Of a stretch of DNA of 64,000 nt, positions 2,833-30,298 are shown piece by piece. Below the pieces are notes generated by a model. That model was not told the origin of the DNA and did not search any database. It worked only from the letters and a program-made list of their open reading frames with translations. The stretch's first letter is position 1, and every line of letters starts with the position of its first letter. The translations under genes were made by a program, and so were the position numbers. The DNA comes from Methanobrevibacter sp. GTDB lineage: Archaea; Methanobacteriota; Methanobacteria; Methanobacteriales; Methanobacteriaceae. The stretch covers positions 30,088 through 94,087 of the forward strand of contig JAFQXD010000016.1 of assembly GCA_017407115.1 (NCBI GenBank), read 5' to 3'.

Positions 2833-3930
2833 ATGTCTGTAACAATTGTAGATGCAAAAACTATTGAAGATAATTTGCCATTTATACTTAAATGGTCTAA
2901 AAATCCTATTGGAAATGGTGGAGCTATTAATCCAGGTTGGAAACAACAAACTGAAATTGATAGGTTCCTTGAATTAGTAGAAAGTACTCCAAGTATTTTA
3001 AACGATGCTAGATTTATTCAAATGGATGGTATTGAGCATGATGTTAATTATCTCCGTGTAAAAGCAAGATTACAATCCATGAAAAAATTATCTGGTGAAA
3101 ATAAAGGTGCACCACTTCAAAAAGATTATACTACTGCTATTGAAGAAACTGTACCTGAATTTAGTCGTTCTAAACTTGTAGCAGAACCATTCTCAATATT
3201 TACTTACACCAGTAAATTATTCTTAAAAGCAAATATTGAACATGATTATTTCTTAACACATATTGAAGCAATTCTTGCTGAAAGAGCAGGTTATTCTGCT
3301 GAAAATATTGGTATGTATGGTATTAAAAATGAAAATACCACAAGTACTGATGGTGTACACCAAATTGATGGAGTATTCAAACAATTACAAGATATTGCAA
3401 GTAATTATGAAAATAATGTTGCAATTGACCGTAGAGCACCAATGGGTTATTATAAAGACATTGATGCAAGTGGTGATTTAGCAAAACAAATCAAAAGAAT
3501 GATTACTCAATTCACCAAACAAAAAGGTAAAAGGTCAAAAGCAAAAATTTACGTTTCTACTGAACTTGAAGGATTGCTTATTGAACAAGCTGACCAAAGA
3601 CCAACACAAAGAGGTGACAACCTTTACTTTGATGATAATGGTCAATTAACACTTTGGGGAGTTCCTATTGTTCAAGCAGACTTCCTCGACGAACCAGATA
3701 ATGGATTTGAGGAACAAATCTTGATGGCTGACCCAGATAGTATTGTATTCGGTTTCTTAAATGAAATTGAATCTGAAAATGAATATGAACTTTCAGCAAA
3801 AGCATACTTGTCTACTGTAGATGTTTACTTTGATGTATTAATTTTATACAACAAAGATGTTCTTGCAGCTAAAATTACAAATATTCCTTCTGCTGTAGCT
3901 GATGATGAGGGAGATGGTTCTTCTCCCTAA
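2833..3930 (+). CDS. Major capsid protein
   Basis: It is 365 aa and sits after the protease/scaffold gene and before the connector genes. Size and context fit an HK97-fold MCP of PBSX XkdG type. Confidence 0.65.
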   Translation: MSVTIVDAKTIEDNLPFILKWSKNPIGNGGAINPGWKQQTEIDRFLELVESTPSILNDARFIQMDGIEHDVNYLRVKARLQSMKKLSGENKGAPLQKDYTTAIEETVPEFSRSKLVAEPFSIFTYTSKLFLKANIEHDYFLTHIEAILAERAGYSAENIGMYGIKNENTTSTDGVHQIDGVFKQLQDIASNYENNVAIDRRAPMGYYKDIDASGDLAKQIKRMITQFTKQKGKRSKAKIYVSTELEGLLIEQADQRPTQRGDNLYFDDNGQLTLWGVPIVQADFLDEPDNGFEEQILMADPDSIVFGFLNEIESENEYELSAKAYLSTVDVYFDVLILYNKDVLAAKITNIPSAVADDEGDGSSP

Positions 3931-4222
3931 TTCTCAGGTGAATCCTGAAACATCAAATAATGAAAATGAAACAAATGTAACTCCAACCACACGTAATGTT
4001 AATTTTGTAATTAATGATGGTACAGATGCAATTCAAGGAGCAACTGTTACTATTGGAGAAATAACTGGAACTACGGGTAGTGCTGGAGGATGTACTTTAC
4101 AAGGCGTAGCTGATGGTGAAAATTCAGTTACTGTAATTGCTGAAGGTTATACATCTAAAACTGAAACCATTACCGTAAGTGAAAATGACACTACTTTCAC
4201 TATTAGTTTAGTCGAGGAATAA
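3902..4222 (+). CDS. Beta-sandwich (CarboxypepD_reg / Ig-like) domain ORF in the +1 frame of the capsid gene, probably expressed as a frameshift extension
   Basis: VNFVINDGTDAIQGATVTIGEITGTTGSAGGCTLQGVADGENSVTVIAEGYTSKTETITV fits the carboxypeptidase-regulatory-like fold pattern. The ORF overlaps the MCP 3' end, and its in-frame ATGs have no properly spaced SD. Confidence 0.5.
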   Translation: MMREMVLLPNSQVNPETSNNENETNVTPTTRNVNFVINDGTDAIQGATVTIGEITGTTGSAGGCTLQGVADGENSVTVIAEGYTSKTETITVSENDTTFTISLVEE

Positions 4223-4309
4223 TTTCTCAGATAGGATTGAGATTTACTTATTGAATTGTCAATCCTATGATGAATTATTCTAATACTTTTTCTAAAAGTG
4301 GTGGTTTAA

Positions 4310-5863: not shown

Positions 5864-6895
5864 ATGGGTGTACTACCAAAAGTCCAAGTGTTTAATAAAA
5901 TTAATCCTGTTAAAAGTAAACCTGGATTGGCATCTAAGATTGCAGTAATTGGGGCATTTGAAGAAGATATAACTGACCCTACATTATGCAAAACTCTTGA
6001 TGAAGCATATGAAAACTTAGGTGATGATACAACCTATAAAGGTGTATCTTGTTTAAAACATTTATTCTATGGTGCTTCAAGTGTTTTAGCTGTTAATATC
6101 ACTACTAAGACAGGTTCAGGAGAGAATATTACAATAGATAAAACTTTTACTCCAGCTAAATTAACATCTGCATTGGCTAAAATTAGTGGAGAAGATTATG
6201 ATATGTTATTTATTGCGGAGGTAATACCTACCACTTTAATAAACATTGTCACTGAATTTTTATCCAACCGTTATTTAAACAAATTACCAACTGGATATGT
6301 TTGTTATAGTGATTTTCAACCAGAAAGAGCAGGTGATTTCTGTTATGGATTACTTAATCAAAGATTAAGTGTTAATGATACATTATTATCTGATGTAGAC
6401 AGTGCAGCTTATTATTGTGGGCTTTTAGCAAGTTTGAATGTAGGAAATTCTATGACTATGAAAGTTGTTCCACAAGTAACTGGTGTATCACCTGAATTAT
6501 CTTTCGAAAACAGTGGAAACGGATTAGACTTGTTAGAATCTGGAATTACTACATTCAGATGTCTTGACCGTGGAAATAATCGTTATGTTGTTGTTAATAG
6601 TGAACAGCCAAATGGATTAGATTTATATATTAACCGTACTCGTGATTTTGTTGTAAAAGAAATGAGCCTACATCAATTTTTAGGTGATAGAAACAGGGTA
6701 GCAACTTTAAATGAGATTAAGCAAGAAGTTGACCGTGTCAAAGAAAGATGTGTTAAAACTTTGGATTTGCTTGAAGACATTGAATACACTGTTGAAAAGA
6801 AAAGCACTAGTTGTGTTGATATTAATATTACCAAATTGTTATTTGCTGGTATTATCACTGAAATTGATGTTTATATTACAATTGAGGTGGAATAG
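5864..6895 (+). CDS. Contractile tail sheath protein
   Basis: It is 343 aa and preceded by GGAGG. It lies directly upstream of a 131-aa tube-like ORF, the chaperone and the tape measure, which is the XkdK-XkdM-XkdN-XkdO order. Baseplate W/J genes downstream imply a myovirus tail. Confidence 0.6.
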   Translation: MGVLPKVQVFNKINPVKSKPGLASKIAVIGAFEEDITDPTLCKTLDEAYENLGDDTTYKGVSCLKHLFYGASSVLAVNITTKTGSGENITIDKTFTPAKLTSALAKISGEDYDMLFIAEVIPTTLINIVTEFLSNRYLNKLPTGYVCYSDFQPERAGDFCYGLLNQRLSVNDTLLSDVDSAAYYCGLLASLNVGNSMTMKVVPQVTGVSPELSFENSGNGLDLLESGITTFRCLDRGNNRYVVVNSEQPNGLDLYINRTRDFVVKEMSLHQFLGDRNRVATLNEIKQEVDRVKERCVKTLDLLEDIEYTVEKKSTSCVDINITKLLFAGIITEIDVYITIEVE

Positions 6896-7348: not shown

Positions 7349-7753
7349 ATGTCTTTAGATGAAGAAAAACAAAAGGAAATGGAACATTTAAGTCAAGAAA
7401 CTGAAGTTTATGATTTAGAATCTTTAATTGTTGATGGAGATGAAGCAAAAGTACCAATATCATTCATCTATCCAAATACAAATAAAACTGTTGGTGCAAT
7501 GATTAGACCGGTAAACACTAAAGAATATAATCACGTTTTGAAAAAATCTGAAAGATTTGGTTTACTGTTTTTAGTTGAAATGTTGAAAATTGCATTATAC
7601 AAAATGGACGGAACAAAATTCCCTGAAGAGTCTATTGGCAAATTACCGGCTGGTGTATGTGCTGAAATAGTTGAAAAAATCAATGACATTTCAGGTATAA
7701 AATCAAATGAAGCTGATTTGGACAGACTTAATGAAAACTTGATGGGGTTTTAA
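7349..7753 (+). CDS. Tail assembly chaperone (gpG / XkdN-like)
   Basis: The ATG at 7349 is preceded by AAAGGAGA. The protein is acidic, 134 aa, and lies immediately upstream of the tape measure. Confidence 0.6.
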   Translation: MSLDEEKQKEMEHLSQETEVYDLESLIVDGDEAKVPISFIYPNTNKTVGAMIRPVNTKEYNHVLKKSERFGLLFLVEMLKIALYKMDGTKFPEESIGKLPAGVCAEIVEKINDISGIKSNEADLDRLNENLMGF

Positions 7754-7929: not shown

Positions 7930-10416
7930 ATGGCAGATAATGAATTAAACATTAAAATCAACACAGAAGCTGATAAAACAAATGTTGAAGATTTATCGTC
8001 TGCTATTGATAAACTAAAAGAAAATTCTGAAGAAGCATCACAAATTGCAACTTCAGCAATGGAAGATATAACGGATGCTGCTGAAGGTGTTTCTGTAGGA
8101 ATGGAAGATGCAAGTGAAAGTACCGAAGAATTAAATAGCTCTGTTGGAAGTCTTGACAGTTCCAATGTTGATGATGTAACTTCAAGTGTTGAAGAAGAAG
8201 CAAGTGCAACTGAAGATGCATCTGATTCTACTGAAGCTTTAAAGGTTACTATTGACAGTATTGATGCAACTGCAATTGCAGATTTAATTGAACAAATGGG
8301 AAATTATAAAACTTCAACTGATGATGCAAATGACAGTACAATGTCTTTAGTTGACGCTATGACAAGTGGTGCTGTTTCAGCCGGTATTACTGCAACTATA
8401 ATGACTTCAGCTTCAGCGGCTGGAAATTATCAAGACACAATGGTGCGTCTTGGTTATGCTTTAACAGGAACCAGTATGAGTTCTGAGCAAGCTGAACAAA
8501 GATTTGGCAGTATGATTTCAACAATGACTGAAGCAACTGGTAGAGGTGCCGGTTCAGCAAGAGCACATTTAATTAATATGGGTAATGTTGGAATTACAAC
8601 TGAAAAAACTTTAACTGAGAGTTTTAATGGTATTTCCAAAGCTTCTTTTCAAATGGGAAAACCTTTTGATACTTTAGAATCTTCTTTTCAGAAAATGACT
8701 TTGTCTGGTATGGCAAATAACAGGATGTTAGCAAACTTTGGTTTAAGTGCTGATGATTTGGCTAAAGCTATGGGTGTTTCTGCTGATGAAGTTAGTGATG
8801 CTTTTAAACAAATGGATGAAGATGGAAGAGCAATGGCTTTGTCAAATGCTCTTAATATGAAATATGGTGAAGATGTTAATGAAAATTATAAAAACAGTTT
8901 TGAACATTTAACCGAAGAGTTAGACAGGGCAAAGGATTATTTTATACGTGTTGCTGGTGAAGCATTACTTCCAACTTTAATCCCTGCAATTCAAACTGCT
9001 GCTGATACAGTCAACTTTTTTGCAAATACTTTTAGAAGTCTTCCAGGACCAATACAAAGTGTTATCGGTGGTGCTTTTGGTTTAGTTGGAGGATTGACTG
9101 CTGTTGGTTTGGGGGTTAATGCTGTTACAAAATTTGTTGGAAGTGCAATTTCACCATTTAGTAGTTTATGGAAATATTTCACCAATGTTCCAGATGGTCA
9201 GAATTTAACCAAATTTAGAAGTCATATTAATTCATTAAAAAATTCAGCTCAAACAGCTAAAGGGTATATGATTAGTTTTAAAAACACTTTAGTTGGTGTT
9301 GGACGTAGTGCTAAAGAAGCTGGTGTTTGGTTGTTAAATGCTGGTAAAAATGCACTGATAGCGGGTTATAATGCACTTAAATCTGCGGCCATGTGGGTTG
9401 TCGAAAAAGCTCAAAAATTAGCAAGTGCTGTAGCATCTAATGTTGCGGCGGCTGCTCAATGGTTACTAAATATTGCTATGAGTGCAAATCCGATCATGTT
9501 AGTTGTAATTGCAATTGTAGCTTTAATTGCTGTTTTAGGTTATCTTTACTTTAATAATGAACAGGTACGTAATGCTGTTAACAGTTTAGGTCAAGCATTC
9601 ATAAGTGTTGGTCAAATAATCTATACAAGTATTGTTAATGCTGTTGATTGGGTTATAGGTGCTTTGCAAAACTTATGGAATTATATTTTCACTTTAGGTG
9701 GTCTGCTCCCTGCAAATGTTAGTTTAACAGGTAATCAAATTATTGATACTGTATTAAGAGTTTTGATTTTTGTTGCAACACTACCAACTCAATTAGGAAT
9801 TATTTTTATCAATACCATTGCTAAAGTTTTAGGTTTTGGAAATAATTTTGTTCAAAGGATGTATTCTTCTGCTGTTAATTCTGTTTCTCGTTTTATGAGT
9901 CAAATTAGTCAATTACCTGGTAGATTGCAAAGTGAATTAAATAACATGCTGTCTGCTGTTGGAAGGTGGGCGGCCACATTACCTCAAAAATTTTGGGATG
10001 CTGGTGTAAATGCTGTTAAAAATTTCTTGAATGCATTAGGTATTCATTCTCCTGGTTTTATGCAAGTTAAGTTAATTAAAGAGATGGAGGATACTGGTGC
10101 AAGAATTCCAGATGCTAGTGAAGATTTAATTAAAAACGTAGGAATTGTTGGTGATGATGTAATTAAATCATTTGGTAATCCTAGCTTAAATGTTGGATTT
10201 AATGAATTAAAAGACCTTGAAAATAATAGTTTGGATTTTGTTAATAATGGCTTATTTGATGTTCTATCTGTCAGCAAAGACAATGAAACAGGTACAATTG
10301 TAAACCTCACATTAAATGTTGGTACTGTTGATAAAAAAGAGAGAGTTGATGAAATCATTGATGCTGTTCGTGAATACTTCTTATGGGATAATACAACAGC
10401 AGGGAGGACAGTATGA
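7930..10416 (+). CDS. Tail tape measure protein
   Basis: It is 828 aa, with an acidic N-terminus and central Ala/Gly-rich hydrophobic segments. It holds the canonical position after the chaperone. Confidence 0.8.
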   Translation: MADNELNIKINTEADKTNVEDLSSAIDKLKENSEEASQIATSAMEDITDAAEGVSVGMEDASESTEELNSSVGSLDSSNVDDVTSSVEEEASATEDASDSTEALKVTIDSIDATAIADLIEQMGNYKTSTDDANDSTMSLVDAMTSGAVSAGITATIMTSASAAGNYQDTMVRLGYALTGTSMSSEQAEQRFGSMISTMTEATGRGAGSARAHLINMGNVGITTEKTLTESFNGISKASFQMGKPFDTLESSFQKMTLSGMANNRMLANFGLSADDLAKAMGVSADEVSDAFKQMDEDGRAMALSNALNMKYGEDVNENYKNSFEHLTEELDRAKDYFIRVAGEALLPTLIPAIQTAADTVNFFANTFRSLPGPIQSVIGGAFGLVGGLTAVGLGVNAVTKFVGSAISPFSSLWKYFTNVPDGQNLTKFRSHINSLKNSAQTAKGYMISFKNTLVGVGRSAKEAGVWLLNAGKNALIAGYNALKSAAMWVVEKAQKLASAVASNVAAAAQWLLNIAMSANPIMLVVIAIVALIAVLGYLYFNNEQVRNAVNSLGQAFISVGQIIYTSIVNAVDWVIGALQNLWNYIFTLGGLLPANVSLTGNQIIDTVLRVLIFVATLPTQLGIIFINTIAKVLGFGNNFVQRMYSSAVNSVSRFMSQISQLPGRLQSELNNMLSAVGRWAATLPQKFWDAGVNAVKNFLNALGIHSPGFMQVKLIKEMEDTGARIPDASEDLIKNVGIVGDDVIKSFGNPSLNVGFNELKDLENNSLDFVNNGLFDVLSVSKDNETGTIVNLTLNVGTVDKKERVDEIIDAVREYFLWDNTTAGRTV

Positions 10417-11242: not shown

Positions 11243-13636
11243 ATGGCTGTTAGTAAAATTGTAGAAAAAATACATTATGATGTTAATCTTGTCCAAAACC
11301 AATCTTTTGTTTATGTTGGTAGATTACTCAATGCAAATTCAATGACTCTCAGTAAAGATTTTTGGAAGAACAATTTAAAGATTTATTGGTCAAAATATCA
11401 GATTAAAGAAACTGATATGAGGCAAAAAACAGCTTCTTTCACCAGCCCACATTACTTTGACCTAACTACTGGTTTATATGCTGTTTTAATAACATCACCT
11501 TATCATGAGGATTTTGGAGGCATCATATTATCTGTAGATTATGATAAATCAACTGGATTATATGATTATCAATGCCAAGACTTCAGTAGAAAGTACCAAA
11601 GCAAATTTAACTTAATTACAGTGAATAATACTAATTATGATTTATTAAGATTATTTTTAACTCAATTTGGCGCTAGTAATGGTAAAGGTAGAGTTTCAGC
11701 TAGTAAATTAAGTAAATACAATTATGTTCTCACAGGTTTAAGACCAAAACTTTATTATGATCAAGGAATTTGGGAAAACGGAATTAAGTTTAATCCAATG
11801 ACCAATGTTCAACAAATGGTCTTCCGGGATGTTTCATATATCGAAGCAATCCGTGATATAGTATTTAGTACAGGAGCCTATATTGATGTATATTTCAATA
11901 AATATGGCGTACTTCAAATAGAACCGTTTAGCAAACAAGATTGGTTAAGAAATGGTATTTATTTAACAACACCTGAATTAGCTAGTAGAAAATTCAAATT
12001 TGACACTACTAACATTATTACAGGAGTTATTGTTAATTCTGAAGACCGTTTAAGTTCCGGCAGATATTATTCAAGTACTAAACTTGTTCGATTAGATTTG
12101 GCTGCATTTTTCGGTGATTTAACAACTACTATTGATAATCCAAACAAAACAACTACATCTACAACCTCATCTTCTAAGACAGTTTCTACAAAAAAGTCAA
12201 CTAAAACAAATAAAAAAGAGGGAACTGGAATTACAGTATTCATGAATATTGATAATATTCATTCTAAAACAAAAGACAAAAAATTAATGAATGATATAGC
12301 AGGTTATCTTAAAAAAAGAGGTTATAAAGTTGAAATAGGTGGGGTTGGTCCTGGATATCATTATTCTCAAATAAATCGTGTGAAAAAGAACGGAATTTAC
12401 ATGTGTATCTATGGGGGAGCATGTGCTGGAACATTAAAAGAACATTGGTCCTCTAATCATTACAAAAGTGTTCTTAAAAAGAAAAATGCTAAAATGGTTG
12501 TTGCATTCTTATCACCACCTAGTACAAATATTCACAATTTAAAATGGCTGCCTCGTGCTCATGATGATAATTTCTCACCTAGAAGCTTTAAAGGTGTCAG
12601 TAATCCTGAACAACAACTATTAAATGCTGGAATTGGTGTTGTCATTGGTAAGAATGCAAAAGAAATTGCTACTAAATTCCCTAATTTCAAATCTTCTGCT
12701 AAAAAAACAACTTCAACTAAAAAAACAACAACAAAATCAACTACTCCAATTAACACTAATACTGCTAATTACATTAATAATGAAATGGCAAGTGCTACTA
12801 ATCGTTTAACTGAAAGTATCCGTGATTTATTATCCTTTAAACTAACATTACCATTAGGAAATCCATTACTCAAAAGATTACATACTAACATGTTTTTATA
12901 TACTGAATTACCTAATGATTTTGTCTTAGCAAATTTTTCTACACTTGCAGAAGTGTTAAACTCAACCTATAATCGTTATGTTGGTTATTCATTGAATAGG
13001 TGGTATGTTGAGGGTGTAACAATAACTAATGATGGTTCAAAGTTTGATGCAGAAATAGAGCTTAATCCGTTCCCTAGTAGCATTAAAAAATATCGTGAAA
13101 GTAGAATGAAATTGGAAGATGATTATAAATCAGCTTTACAATCCAATACTAGCAAAACTACAACCACAACTAAAAAATCAACTAAATCAACAAAAAATAG
13201 CACTTTAAAAGGTGGGGAAGGAAAAACAATTGATAATTTAGTTAAAAAGATTATTGGCTCAGAAACAAATGAATTGAAAAAAGCAAAGTTAATTCATGAA
13301 TGGTTGAGAAAAAATGTCAGATATGCTTACTATGAATGTACTAAGTACAATACACCTGAAAAATGTTATAAAAATAGAAGACATTTGAATTGTGCAGATA
13401 CAGCAAGATTAACTGCTAGTATGATGAGAAGTGCTGGATTAAAATGTTATATTGTTCACAGGACTTATAATGGTGGTCACTTCTGGACTATTATTGAAAT
13501 TAAAGGTAAAAAATATGCTAGTGATCAAACTGGTAATGGTTCAGCATTTAATACTGTTTGGGCAAGGTCAGGTAGAGTTAAAGTTTCTAACGGTGGTGCT
13601 TATTCAAGGAAAAATGGTAAAGTTCCTGATTGTTAA
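11243..13636 (+). CDS. Tail hub / baseplate central protein (XkdQ position) with a C-terminal transglutaminase-like cysteine peptidase domain
   Basis: It is 797 aa with three modules separated by Thr/Ser/Lys linkers. The C-terminus (LNCADTARLTASMMRSAGLKCYIVHRTYNGGHFWTIIEIKGKKYASDQT) gives a C717/H746/D761 spacing typical of transglutaminase-core folds. Confidence 0.65.
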   Translation: MAVSKIVEKIHYDVNLVQNQSFVYVGRLLNANSMTLSKDFWKNNLKIYWSKYQIKETDMRQKTASFTSPHYFDLTTGLYAVLITSPYHEDFGGIILSVDYDKSTGLYDYQCQDFSRKYQSKFNLITVNNTNYDLLRLFLTQFGASNGKGRVSASKLSKYNYVLTGLRPKLYYDQGIWENGIKFNPMTNVQQMVFRDVSYIEAIRDIVFSTGAYIDVYFNKYGVLQIEPFSKQDWLRNGIYLTTPELASRKFKFDTTNIITGVIVNSEDRLSSGRYYSSTKLVRLDLAAFFGDLTTTIDNPNKTTTSTTSSSKTVSTKKSTKTNKKEGTGITVFMNIDNIHSKTKDKKLMNDIAGYLKKRGYKVEIGGVGPGYHYSQINRVKKNGIYMCIYGGACAGTLKEHWSSNHYKSVLKKKNAKMVVAFLSPPSTNIHNLKWLPRAHDDNFSPRSFKGVSNPEQQLLNAGIGVVIGKNAKEIATKFPNFKSSAKKTTSTKKTTTKSTTPINTNTANYINNEMASATNRLTESIRDLLSFKLTLPLGNPLLKRLHTNMFLYTELPNDFVLANFSTLAEVLNSTYNRYVGYSLNRWYVEGVTITNDGSKFDAEIELNPFPSSIKKYRESRMKLEDDYKSALQSNTSKTTTTTKKSTKSTKNSTLKGGEGKTIDNLVKKIIGSETNELKKAKLIHEWLRKNVRYAYYECTKYNTPEKCYKNRRHLNCADTARLTASMMRSAGLKCYIVHRTYNGGHFWTIIEIKGKKYASDQTGNGSAFNTVWARSGRVKVSNGGAYSRKNGKVPDC

Positions 13637-19325: not shown

Positions 19326-21830
19326 ATGACTAATAGAACATTAACAGATGAAATAATCACTTTAATTCAAAGCGAAGCTAATAACAATCCTGCACCAAAA
19401 CCATGTAAAATAATTGGTAATTATGGTGAAACACCATATTCTGATGTTGAAATTGAGGATTTGGGGAAATTAATTCATAAAAAAACAATAGGTAGTACAA
19501 AAATAGGTTTGGAAGGGATTATTTGTTTTTTGAATGGTAATTTAAGTGATGGTGTTGTTATAACCTATGATGAATCAAGTATTCCTGAAATATTGTCTTT
19601 TTATCAAAAGAATACAATTGATTTGGTATATGCACTTGAAAATTATGGTAAAACTTCAAATAATGAATATTATTTATTTAGAGGTGATTGCTGGACAATT
19701 AACAATAATTTTGAAGCAAGTGCATCCATTACAAGTCGATCTGACAAGGATTTAAAAGTTACTGGAACTTTTCGTACACAAAATGATATTGTAGGATTAT
19801 ATTGGAATTCCAAAGATTTGATAGAACATCCTTATATTAGTTATGGTACTGTTAATGATTATTCTAATGTTATTTTAAGTTTCGATTATGAAATGACTGG
19901 TTGTAAAGACTTTTCAAATGGAACTATAAGTATTACAATTGGAAAAACTGATGGTTCAATATATTATTTAACCATGAACCGTTTTATTGAAAATAATCAT
20001 GTAACTATTGATTTTAGTAATCTTACATTATTAACCGGGAATATTTACATTGATGCAACTGGGGAGGAAATAACTGTTACTGAAACAACACCTCTTGATG
20101 TAACTGATATAGAATACATAATGTTTGTACTTGTTCCTCCTAATTATGTTGAAAACAAAGAACAGTACACCATTATTGATAATCTTGATTTTACATGTGA
20201 AATGTCAAATATTGAAGTTTCCAATGGCAAAATCCGTAATGAATTTATAATATTGGAATCTCATGAATATAGGTTATGTGAGGGTTATGATGATATTTAC
20301 AATTTAAATCCTCGTAGAATTTGTAAGGAAATGAGAAAACTCGGTTATACTGATTGGGTGGATTTATATGTTGGAGCTTCACATTTTTATGAAAAAAGTG
20401 GGATTGTTGGAGATATTATAAATATTGATGAAAATTCATTTAATCATAATCAAACTGAAAAAATGGTTTTAAATCCAAAAATACCTTTAAATAAAGCATT
20501 TATTAGTTGGTTAGATTGTTATTCTCGTGAATTAAAAGAGAATGGTACTGATAAACTCATTATTAGTGTTTCAATGGAAAATTTGCAATGTCCTGCAAGT
20601 TGGAGGCAAAAAACTAGTAGTGGAGATTATGCTTTAACTGGTTGGACACCATCTACATTCTTTTACAGTCCTTGCAACAATGAAGTTGTTGATTACATGG
20701 AATCAGTTAGTGAAAAATGTTTAGATATTGTTGTAGCAAATGGTTTACAACCTATTCTTCAAATGGGTGAGGCTTGGTGGTGGTGGAATGAAAATGACAA
20801 GCCAAATCAGCCGCCTTGTTTCTATGATGATGCGACTAGAAATAAATATTATAATACCTTTGGAGATTACATTCCTGAGTATTCTACATCATCTGAAGTG
20901 TACGATGAAGAAGTTACATCTTGGCTAAATCAACAACTTGTTAATTATAGTGATAAATTAAGAGGGGTTGTTAAAGACTCAAAATATGATAATGGTTTGT
21001 ATATGGCTTTATTTTTCCCACCTAGTGTTACTGATGTTGACAGAGTACCACCTATGATGAGAGAAGTAAACTATTTGAGAAAAGCATATGATCCATTGAA
21101 ATTAGATGTCCTTGAACTTGAAGATTATGATTGGGTTACTGGTGAAAGTAAGCACCATGATGAAGTATACTCTCTAGGAAATGAATTAGGATTTAGTGAA
21201 GATAGATTACATTATTATGGTGGTTTTGTTCAATATCCTGAAGATGCTCCGAAATTTTGGAATTTAATTTCAAAATCAATGGAGACTGCAATAAATAAGA
21301 AATTCAAAGAAGTCTTTGTTTGGGCTGGTTCTCAAGTGAGAAGAGATAGTAAATTCATAGGGCATTATTCTTTTGAGTTAATTCAAAGATTATTGGATTT
21401 AATTCCTGAAGTAAAATCTTATGATGATACAAATCTTAAGTCTAGGATAACTGCTTTAGAAAAGCAATCTTCATCTGTTGATACTGGTTGGGTTGATTTG
21501 AGTTTAACTGGTAATTTTTATAATTTTGATTCAAATAATCGTGTTCAATATCGTAAAGTTGGAAGTGATGTTCAAATCACTGGTCTTCCAGTACTTAATG
21601 CATATCCATCTGCATTAACTGAATTAATCATTGGAACATTACCTGAGGGTTTTAGACCAATCCGTGATGTTTCACATGTTTGTGAGTTAAAAGATGATGA
21701 TAAATTATGGACTTGTACAGTAAAATCTAATGGTGATGTAACATTTAACCGTTTACGTGATAATACAGGATTTGTTGCTGGAACAGCATTTGCAGACGTT
21801 TTAAAATTAAATGTAACATTTCTAATATAA
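19326..21830 (+). CDS. Large tail fibre / receptor-binding protein candidate
   Basis: It is 834 aa and is the last structural ORF before the lysin. A central Trp-rich region (MGEAWWWWNENDKPNQPPCFYDD) may be TIM-barrel-like, and there is a C-terminal beta-rich module. The function is inferred from position. Confidence 0.45.
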   Translation: MTNRTLTDEIITLIQSEANNNPAPKPCKIIGNYGETPYSDVEIEDLGKLIHKKTIGSTKIGLEGIICFLNGNLSDGVVITYDESSIPEILSFYQKNTIDLVYALENYGKTSNNEYYLFRGDCWTINNNFEASASITSRSDKDLKVTGTFRTQNDIVGLYWNSKDLIEHPYISYGTVNDYSNVILSFDYEMTGCKDFSNGTISITIGKTDGSIYYLTMNRFIENNHVTIDFSNLTLLTGNIYIDATGEEITVTETTPLDVTDIEYIMFVLVPPNYVENKEQYTIIDNLDFTCEMSNIEVSNGKIRNEFIILESHEYRLCEGYDDIYNLNPRRICKEMRKLGYTDWVDLYVGASHFYEKSGIVGDIINIDENSFNHNQTEKMVLNPKIPLNKAFISWLDCYSRELKENGTDKLIISVSMENLQCPASWRQKTSSGDYALTGWTPSTFFYSPCNNEVVDYMESVSEKCLDIVVANGLQPILQMGEAWWWWNENDKPNQPPCFYDDATRNKYYNTFGDYIPEYSTSSEVYDEEVTSWLNQQLVNYSDKLRGVVKDSKYDNGLYMALFFPPSVTDVDRVPPMMREVNYLRKAYDPLKLDVLELEDYDWVTGESKHHDEVYSLGNELGFSEDRLHYYGGFVQYPEDAPKFWNLISKSMETAINKKFKEVFVWAGSQVRRDSKFIGHYSFELIQRLLDLIPEVKSYDDTNLKSRITALEKQSSSVDTGWVDLSLTGNFYNFDSNNRVQYRKVGSDVQITGLPVLNAYPSALTELIIGTLPEGFRPIRDVSHVCELKDDDKLWTCTVKSNGDVTFNRLRDNTGFVAGTAFADVLKLNVTFLI

Positions 21831-29620: not shown

Positions 29621-30298
29621 ATGCATATTATGGAAGGGTTCTTACCACCATTTTGGTGTGCTGTTTGGTATGTAATAGCAATCATTGTTGTGGCATACGG
29701 GCTCTATGAAATTAAAAAGGTAGTAGATGAAACACCTGAATCCAAAGCTTTACTTGCTGTAAGTGGAGCATTCATGTTCGTTATTTCATCTTTGAAATTA
29801 CCTTCTGTAACCGGAAGTTGTTCTCACCCAACAGGTAACGGATTAGGTGCAGCACTATTTGGACCTGCTGTTACTGGTGTTTTAGCAACAATTGTATTAA
29901 TTTTCCAAGCAATCTTACTTGCTCACGGAGGATTAACTACTTTAGGTGCAAACTGTGTATCTATGGGTATTGTAGGACCATTTGTCGGATGGATTGTATA
30001 CAAACTATTAACTAAAGCTGGAGTTCCATCTAAAATTAATATTTTCTTAATTGCTTTCATTGCAGATATCGTAACTTACATCGTAACTGCAATCCAATTA
30101 GGTTTAGCATTCCCTGAACCTACCACTATGGCAGCAATTACAAAATTCTTCTTAATCTTCGCTCCAACTCAATTACCATTAGCTATCGCTGAAGGTTTAT
30201 TAACCGTAATTATTTGGAACGGATTAATGAGTTACAAACCTAAATTATTAAACAAATTAGGTGCAATTTCAGACAGTGAATTATCTAAAGGTGAATAG
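29621..30298 (+). CDS. cbiM: ECF transporter substrate component CbiM (cobalt or nickel)
   Basis: The N-terminus is MHIMEGFLP, and SCSHPTGNGLGA is present. The protein is multi-TM and is followed by N, Q and O genes. Confidence 0.85.
   Translation: MHIMEGFLPPFWCAVWYVIAIIVVAYGLYEIKKVVDETPESKALLAVSGAFMFVISSLKLPSVTGSCSHPTGNGLGAALFGPAVTGVLATIVLIFQAILLAHGGLTTLGANCVSMGIVGPFVGWIVYKLLTKAGVPSKINIFLIAFIADIVTYIVTAIQLGLAFPEPTTMAAITKFFLIFAPTQLPLAIAEGLLTVIIWNGLMSYKPKLLNKLGAISDSELSKGE

Follow-up and report, generated by a model that had tools for sequence, protein, structure and literature searches.

A probable +1 frameshift at a conserved CCC codon appends a beta-sandwich domain to the capsid protein of a Methanobrevibacter provirus

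The 64,000-nucleotide stretch of DNA analyzed here (hereafter the window; positions 30,088 to 94,087 of contig JAFQXD010000016.1, Methanobrevibacter sp. assembly GCA_017407115.1) carries a provirus of a gut or rumen methanogen, whose major capsid protein gene is followed in the +1 frame by an open reading frame (ORF) for a small beta-sandwich domain. Comparison with related loci makes it very probable that a programmed +1 frameshift at a CCC codon at the end of the capsid gene appends this domain to the capsid protein. This reading is favored by the conservation of the CCC codon, by an extension that always lies in the +1 frame, by lineages whose downstream ORF has no start codon, and by in-frame fusions of the same two modules elsewhere. 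An initial annotation of the window had proposed such a shift, and each of its predictions at the level of sequence held when set against relatives, a case that rests on comparative genomics.

The capsid gene (2833-3930, zero frame, forward strand, as are all features below) encodes a short form of 365 amino acids (aa) and 41.0 kDa and ends in ...GGT TCT TCT CCC TAA, with CCC at 3925-3927 and TAA at 3928-3930. The final stop of the +1 frame, TAG at 3896-3898, sets the 5′ bound of a shift-permissive interval (3899-3930), and from 3899 the +1 frame runs uninterrupted to a stop at 4220-4222. The part beyond the capsid stop comprises 97 codons (3929-4219) and that stop (3929-4222 in all). Read after a slip on CCC, the sequence becomes CCU AAU UCU CAG GUG... 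(P-NSQVNPETSNNENETN...), and the predicted trans-frame product would measure 462 aa and 51.0 kDa, with ...GDGSSP joined to NSQVNPE... and a predicted junction peptide ...GDGSSPNSQVNPETSNNENETNVTPTTR. Re-reading of the ORFs and sequence confirmed all coordinates, frames and sequences initially reported around CCC-TAA. The -1 frame reaches a stop 3 codons past the capsid stop, and the chance of a 97-codon open frame at 33% G+C is ~6e-4, by arithmetic from the composition of the window. Because in-frame fusions occur in relatives, one might suppose that such a fusion has been split here, either by an indel introduced in assembly or sequencing or by a frameshift mutation of recent date. However, contigs from four independent metagenome assemblies, each from a separate run (9-85x depth), are identical over 3700-4300 and free of indels, so the split is not an assembly error. 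In addition, the same +1 arrangement and CCC are kept down to 40% capsid identity, with the downstream frame intact and conserved; we therefore give an artefact or gene decay a virtually negligible probability.

The upstream ORF matches phrog_1623 ('virion structural protein', E 6e-25), and a Foldseek comparison of its AlphaFold model with HK97-fold capsid proteins returned P2/P4 gpN as the best match (7jw1, E 9e-11), alongside the capsid proteins of DT57C, phi29 (gp8) and Bxb1. By its predicted structure, this ORF is an HK97-fold major capsid protein. It sits within a head-gene module, preceded by the end of a portal gene, a head-morphogenesis gene and an XkdF-type prohead protease/scaffold gene (PF14550). 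The capsid tail DDEGDGSSP and the first 20 residues of the extension form an acidic, disordered linker (3898-3988) of low predicted local distance difference test (pLDDT) score: in the fusion model, pLDDT falls below 50 at residues 356-382 and the C-terminal domain is confidently folded, and the extension modeled alone shows low pLDDT over residues 1-20 and then a seven-strand beta-sandwich at pLDDT ~96. This domain (3989-4219) carries a conserved TTGSxGGC motif and is of the transthyretin-like or carboxypeptidase-regulatory-like (PEGA) type. The Pfam matches (PEGA, PF08308, E 5e-7, over the curated cut-off; CarboxypepD_reg, PF13620, E 1e-6), the model and the Foldseek neighbors agree with the carboxypeptidase-regulatory-like assignment already made in the initial annotation. 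Among solved structures, the nearest are carboxypeptidase D (5aq0, its transthyretin-like domain), a SusC transporter (its N-terminal extension, or NTE, domain), an archaeal S-layer protein and CnaB pilin domains. As modeled, the extension is an autonomous beta-sandwich on a flexible linker.

We searched for homologues with the hypothetical 462-aa fusion as query and obtained 113 clusters of capsid homologues, 108 of them short (343-384 aa). Three were long (442, 444 and 527 aa), with 98-100% query coverage and a PEGA/CarboxypepD_reg domain in frame. At the DNA level, we compared 62 related loci, drawn from collections of genomes, viruses and metagenomes, together with three fused genes. In 59 of the 62, the +1 frame runs 77-178 codons beyond the capsid stop into a common G-x-GGC beta-sandwich, and the -1 frame stays open for at most 38 codons; the other three are two in-frame fusions (L003 and L060) and one locus without an extension (L054). 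The alignment of relatives suggested at the outset thus revealed a conserved CCC, an extension always in +1 when present, and several lineages without a downstream start. A clean stand-alone gene with its own ribosome-binding site (RBS) and no overlap, the arrangement that would have spoken for a separate protein, was absent from all 62 loci.

The 59 loci reduce to 41 unique junctions, which represent 13 of 17 capsid clusters (80% identity) and reach capsid identities as low as 40%. Every one of these junctions (41/41) holds a single zero-frame CCC inside the overlap. The 5′ bound of the open +1 frame varies among relatives from 164 nucleotides (nt) to only 2 nt (L053) before the CCC, and the permissive intervals of all loci share only this codon, so CCC is the only possible common site if the family uses one site. 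Consistent with this, the +1-frame peptide encoded 5′ of CCC is unconserved and highly variable in length. What follows the codon defines two groups. In the group of the window, a stop (UAA, UGA or UAG) comes immediately after CCC; in the other, CCC is followed by A, for example in CCC AUC UAA, CCC AGC GGG UCA GGA GAC UAA and CCC AGU GAA UGA. Across the 41 contexts, the base 3′ of the junction CCC is only U (that of the stop) or A, and the A-site codon is UAA in the window and a common sense codon such as AUU, AAU or AGC in many relatives. The initial annotation proposed testing whether CCC-TAA-T is conserved, and had the slow stop codon occupy the A site during the slip. Conservation extends to the CCC itself, whereas the adjacent stop is dispensable in the family, as many relatives have CCC-A with the stop 1-5 codons further on.

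This conservation exceeds coding needs, with one CCC per junction and the codon otherwise near-absent from capsid genes. The junction accounts for 59 of the 68 CCC codons in these genes, which contain 861 proline codons, and is mostly the sole CCC of its gene. In L063 and L064, which are in-frame fusions, the equivalent proline is encoded by CCU and the whole gene is free of CCC; L054 likewise lacks CCC. Each of the 108 short capsid clusters has a proline among its last seven residues; the residue after it is I, S, N, K or T, or the protein stops there, and each of these five residues is compatible with A as the next base. Within the window, CCC makes up 3.5% of proline codons, and a CCC-stop ending is unique to the capsid gene (1 of 57 genes).

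The same data bear on other forms of recoding, in which the downstream frame would be reached by a -2 shift, by hopping, by slippage during transcription, or by a shift within 3899-3927 at a codon other than CCC. The sequence cannot separate slippage of a P-site tRNA on CCC from out-of-frame binding of tRNA(Pro) to CCU at a hungry A-site CCC, which would yield the same protein. The overlap, on the other hand, contains neither a homopolymer long enough for polymerase slippage nor a -2 or -1 slippery motif, and CCC alone is common to the permissive intervals of all loci; such alternatives are highly improbable.

We propose that the shift occurs at UCU CCC UAA U (3922-3931). Most ribosomes would stop at UAA (3928-3930) and release the 365-aa HK97-fold capsid protein, while a fraction, with peptidyl-tRNA(Pro) on the rare CCC (3925-3927) in the P site and UAA in the A site, would slip by +1 and re-pair on CCU (3926-3928). 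U3928 would thereby be skipped as the first base of a codon, and decoding would restart at AAU (3929). The outcome would be a 462-aa protein composed of the capsid body, a disordered acidic linker of ~30 residues and the transthyretin-like beta-sandwich. The slip is probably helped by the rarity of CCC and by slow termination, with a C-terminal proline and a stop in the A site, and possibly by a downstream hairpin. Long and short forms would then co-assemble, displaying the beta-sandwich on flexible tethers at the virion surface. We infer the shifting itself, its efficiency, its stimulators, co-assembly and the function of the domain from the anatomy, folds and conservation observed here; that the domain helps the virion adhere to glycans, mucus or other gut or rumen surfaces is plausible speculation.

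Direct fusions of capsid protein and domain in a single frame occur in four lineages (L003, L063/P0016, L064/P0017 and L065/P0022). The most informative of these is L003, whose capsid body shares ~96% identity with that of the CCC-stop locus L032 and whose domain almost matches the one in the window (...TPTTRNINFVINDGTDAIQGATVTIGEITGTTGSQGGC...); a single frame connects body and domain through a longer linker without CCC. The L003 contig, JAFRCC010000006.1, is binned as 'Clostridia bacterium'; with a capsid gene ~96% identical to those of Methanobrevibacter-virus contigs, it is probably mis-binned. In the fusion P0022 (L065:1501-3084, and L060), the junction UCU CCC AUA GGG is kept and the +1 frame reads CCA UAG. 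A +1 slip in L065 could therefore yield a short form ending in ...SSP, a reversed arrangement, although this is a single lineage and may be due to chance.

The +1 extensions are modular, as L001, L004, L016, L017, L020 and L023 show. Most comprise one beta-sandwich (84-108 codons); those of L001 and L004 comprise two in tandem (172-178 codons), and those of the L016 group have a different first domain followed by a PEGA-like one (163-165 codons). An unrelated 265-aa protein with tandem 'WNYL' repeats (P0115) ends in the same beta-sandwich, indicating that the domain moves between proteins. A further protein, P0114 (415 aa, from a 2-kb contig), combines response-regulator and Spo0A_C domains with a capsid match of 50% identity over 47% of the query, and is probably a chimeric assembly or a gene-calling error.

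We examined the sequences flanking CCC for possible stimulators. In the window, a hairpin of 5 base pairs (bp; UCAGG-UGAAU-CCUGA, 3934-3948, -5.3 kcal/mol) starts 6 nt 3′ of CCC and overlaps the tract AGGUGA, which is complementary to the anti-Shine-Dalgarno (anti-SD) sequence of 16S rRNA. Several other lineages place a hairpin 5-8 nt 3′ of CCC regardless of the position of the zero-frame stop, which in L012 is the loop itself, and their stems show compensatory changes (CAGGA/UCCUG, CAGAG/CUCUG, CGGAG/CUCCG and CAGAC/GUCUG). When 13 such elements are aligned, pairing holds in 95.6% of cells, compared to 32-61% in slid controls, and three of six pairs are changed on both sides; at random window positions, a hairpin of this quality is found at a frequency of 1% by a compact definition and 11% by a broad one. 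These 13 elements were chosen since hairpins were visible in them, and the hairpin of the window was defined post hoc. It is also weak, and in most CCC-stop relatives the variant UGAGG introduces a G.G mismatch that leaves no stable hairpin. The 120-nt downstream region folds no better than shuffled sequences (z = -0.33), and only the local hairpin stands out, leading us to dismiss a large downstream RNA structure. A universal hairpin was likewise dismissed, as other lineages have different ones (for example GGUAAC...GUUACC, 13-15 nt downstream) or none. Given the choice of a visible subset, the loss in CCC-stop relatives, the null frequencies of 1-11% and the unremarkable 120-nt fold, we keep the hairpin only as an uncertain candidate for a 3′ stimulator.

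The UGAGG variant is itself a near-perfect anti-SD complement (GAGGUGAAUCC, -15.4 kcal/mol). It belongs to a tract, U GAG GUG AAU CCU GAA, that stands at a fixed 7 nt past CCC and corresponds to 3931-3948 of the window, with equivalents in L001, L002, L004, L006-L008, L024, L032, L033 and L061. Two codons in this tract are rare, GAG (19% of Glu) and GTG (9% of Val). The tract pairs almost fully with the anti-SD of 16S rRNA, and it introduces another stop in the zero frame, UGA. We dismissed an independent start served by the conserved GAGGUGAAUCC, as no ATG, GTG or TTG in the right frame follows the tract. On the other side of the site, SD-like tracts lie 0-6 nt 5′ of CCC in 41% of contexts, compared to a null of 2.5%; these could be a by-product of codons for an Asp/Glu/Gly-rich linker, or functional.

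The limits of the hairpin evidence weigh against a programmed shift, and so do several other observations. The loci are often close kin, such that the counts above are non-independent and represent ~12-17 lineages. A search for tRNA(Pro) returned no tRNA gene in the window and one tRNA-Thr only in 40 related loci. The overlap in the window carries three in-frame ATGs (3902, 3905 and 3914; 26, 23 and 14 nt before the capsid stop), and an SD-like purine tract, GAGGGAG (3907-3913), directly abuts ATG 3914, making some independent initiation possible. Elsewhere in the same genome, 4702-5232 overlaps the next gene in the +1 frame and that gene has a real start. On the window alone, these features make viable a separate small gene, started at ATG 3914, 3902 or 3905 and translationally coupled to the capsid gene, whose product would be a free, non-covalent 11-kDa decoration protein made with no frameshift.

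Initiation signals argue against this separate gene. Calculated against a general archaeal 16S rRNA anti-SD sequence, the duplex energies are -3.1 kcal/mol for ATG 3902 and ATG 3905, which are in effect without an SD, and -6.7 kcal/mol for ATG 3914, at zero spacer; GTG 3938 reaches -4.5 kcal/mol at a 16-nt spacer. The initial annotation was thus right that the starts at 3902, 3905 and 3914 are poorly served, and its description of neighboring virion genes as having strong SDs holds for many but not for all: many reach -10 to -13 kcal/mol, whereas the genes at 1778 and 4702 lack an SD and the capsid gene itself has only -6.5 kcal/mol. Among relatives, L030, L038 and L053 are devoid of ATG, GTG and TTG both across the overlap and within ten codons past the stop, and at several other loci the sole candidate start is a TTG right after the upstream +1-frame stop. 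The conserved start and RBS of its own that a stand-alone decoration gene should have were therefore lacking. A start-coupled gene would need neither a constant +1 frame nor a single CCC, and the in-frame fusions in four lineages, L003 above all, show the domain joined to the capsid protein. As modeled, the free product would also be a beta-sandwich with a disordered N-terminal linker of 20-30 residues and no evident capsid-binding module.

Gene callers behind public databases do annotate such ORFs as proteins in their own right: we found >100 clusters of small domain proteins (78-165 aa), of which one bears the name 'carboxypeptidase regulatory-like domain-containing protein'. Wherever we inspected the locus, the ORF was in the +1 frame of a capsid gene; most of the >100 clusters are therefore probably mis-called capsid C-termini rather than separate genes. 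Weighing both sides, we consider a separate small gene to be quite improbable. A combined scheme, in which a +1 frameshift gives the fusion and internal initiation in the overlap also gives free domain, would accommodate both the ATGs of the window and the family-wide frameshift signature. Start-less lineages, however, cannot make free domain, so there is no conserved requirement for it, and no SD stands at a usable distance; we regard this scheme as unlikely. The programmed +1 shift at CCC remains our preferred reading.

A more far-reaching version of this reading treats CCC_N as a dedicated, family-wide +1 recoding signal in archaeal translation, which would be the first conserved one in methanogens. 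Here, CCC would have been purged from the rest of the capsid gene, and its 3′ tuners would be interchangeable: a stop right next to CCC, a hairpin that covaries and lies 5-8 nt downstream, or the anti-SD-complementary GAGGUGAAUCC, which might create a roadblock by retaining a second small subunit. Lineages would switch freely among frameshifted, in-frame and possibly reversed (L065) states, and this switching would set the density of capsid decoration. Taken jointly, these propositions form a tentative extension that we think rather doubtful.

Comparison with known recoding systems places the case among familiar designs. According to PMC5009743 (reporting Zimmer 2003 and Dorscht 2009), the tail gene tsh of Listeria phages PSA, A118 and A500 shifts +1 at CCC_UGA, and the PSA capsid gene cps shifts +1 at ACA_CCC_UCC with a 3′ pseudoknot. 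The likeness to CCC-UGA shifts of PSA structural genes that had been drawn initially is therefore apt for the tail gene tsh and does not extend to the PSA capsid gene. Shared features are a low-G+C host in which CCC is rare (5% of proline codons in Listeria (PMC5009743), 3.5% here), a position at the 3′ end of a virion gene, and a C-terminally extended second product; the present family contains both variants, CCC-stop and CCC-sense with a candidate downstream structure. Unlike the Listeria phages, this virus infects an archaeon and would rely on archaeal ribosomes, on aRF1 and on another set of tRNA(Pro), and the stop may be UAA, UGA or UAG. Compared to PSA, the structure here is at most a hairpin of 5-7 bp with no demonstrated pseudoknot, there is no sequence homology, and the case is known from sequence, whereas the PSA products were shown by proteomics. 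The rarity of CCC and slow termination after a C-terminal proline are established stimulators of bacterial and eukaryotic recoding (PMC5009743), and by analogy may act in the same way in archaea. A search of the tail genes of the window for a second PSA-like +1 site found none; each of the remaining overlaps either has an ordinary start or is in the -1 frame.

The closest archaeal parallel was predicted in silico in 2024: in MSTV1-like viruses of Methanobrevibacter smithii, the capsid protein would gain an Ig-like domain through a -1 shift at A AAG GAA (PMC11375127). The initial annotation was aware of no demonstrated case in an archaeal virus, but one had thus already been predicted. Both systems, MSTV1 ('Usuviridae') and the present one, concern a tailed Methanobrevibacter virus from animal or human guts with an HK97-fold capsid protein and a C-terminal beta-sandwich that would be added by recoding, both were identified in silico, and both have relatives with a direct fusion: vir272 there (PMC11375127) and four lineages here. 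The MSTV1 authors also suggested an adhesion role for the appended domain (PMC11375127). The shift differs, in that MSTV1 would use -1 at A AAG GAA, whereas in the window the -1 frame is shut after 3 codons and that motif is absent from 3899-3930. Our scan of species-representative genomes returned no M. smithii locus, which suggests that the relationship to MSTV1 is not close.

Among bacteriophages, Ig-like domains are often appended by frameshifting, and capsid extensions by -1 frameshifting are found in T3/T7 (gene 10A/10B) and Lactobacillus phage A2, with Ig-like domains in T3 and A2 (PMC5009743). As in those phages, a minor, longer capsid species would arise here through recoding at the 3′ end of the gene; theirs, in contrast, is a -1 shift at heptanucleotide sites in bacterial hosts. 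The fusion model aligns with phi29 gp8 over ~485-506 columns, including the extra C-terminal Ig-like domain of gp8, and the in-frame relatives L003, L063, L064 and L065 share that architecture. In contrast to our case, phi29 uses no recoding and carries the domain on every subunit, and its domain is of BIG2 type rather than transthyretin-like/PEGA. A likely +1 frameshift has also been described for the tail assembly chaperone of the haloarchaeal myovirus HSTV-2 (PMC5009743). It resembles the present case as predicted +1 recoding in an archaeal tailed virus, and differs in concerning a G/GT chaperone gene, a different host phylum and a different site.

Cellular genes offer a mechanistic parallel. 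Escherichia coli pheL shifts +1 at CCC_UGA and prfB at CUU_UGA with an upstream SD, events that are regulatory or incidental. As proposed here, a P-site tRNA slips +1 beside a stop, where a C-terminal proline or the stop context slows termination, and, as in prfB, many relatives carry an SD-like tract within a few nt of the site, on its 5′ side. Unlike the capsid junction, neither pheL nor prfB provides a route to a structural fusion. A search for papers on a CCC +1 site in methanogen viruses found none, within incomplete coverage of the literature.

A recoding-appended display domain on a capsid protein is therefore already known, and what is distinctive here is the archaeal host together with a signal conserved across a large virus family. 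To our knowledge, almost no natural +1 case is established in archaea. If confirmed, this junction would provide a clean, evolutionarily validated +1 site for recoding studies on archaeal ribosomes, where one could ask how tRNA(Pro) slips, what m1G37/Trm5 and aIF5A contribute, and how aRF1 terminates after proline. It would also mean that a large family of rumen and gut Methanobrevibacter viruses shows a tethered beta-sandwich on its heads, a feature that bears on the persistence of archaeal viruses in the gut and on methanogen ecology in ruminants.

The genomic setting identifies the element. Virion genes fill the first ~23 kb of the window and are followed by host genes (HisG, IMPDH, UvrC, geranylgeranyl reductase and PurF), and near relatives are found in Methanobrevibacter assemblies of goat, reindeer and roe deer origin; it is on these grounds that we assign a provirus of a gut or rumen methanogen. 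The INPHARED phage collection yielded only capsid proteins of Bacillus, Clostridium and Vibrio phages at ~25% identity, so the virus has no annotated near relative there, and a look-up of the clusters returned uninformative names.

Three further observations concern the tail genes. The gene at the position of a tail assembly chaperone (7298 or 7349 to 7753) ends in AUG GGG UUU UAA, its -1 frame is open for 57 further codons, and that frame closes just before the start of the tape-measure gene at 7930. This looks like a classic G/GT -1 frameshift, probably on G_GGG_UUU_U, in which case the virus would use both -1 and +1 recoding. An 834-aa protein (19326-21827) matches 'non-contractile tail sheath protein' families (PF23845 and PF23844, E 1e-67), and a gene at 5864-6895 has a weak tail sheath match (phrog_279); from these two sheath-type matches, the tail of this archaeal virus may be unusual. 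Finally, a 797-aa protein of the virion module (11243-13636) has a C-terminal transglutaminase-like core domain (PF01841, E 1e-11), and may be a tail-associated hydrolase of the pseudomurein cell wall.

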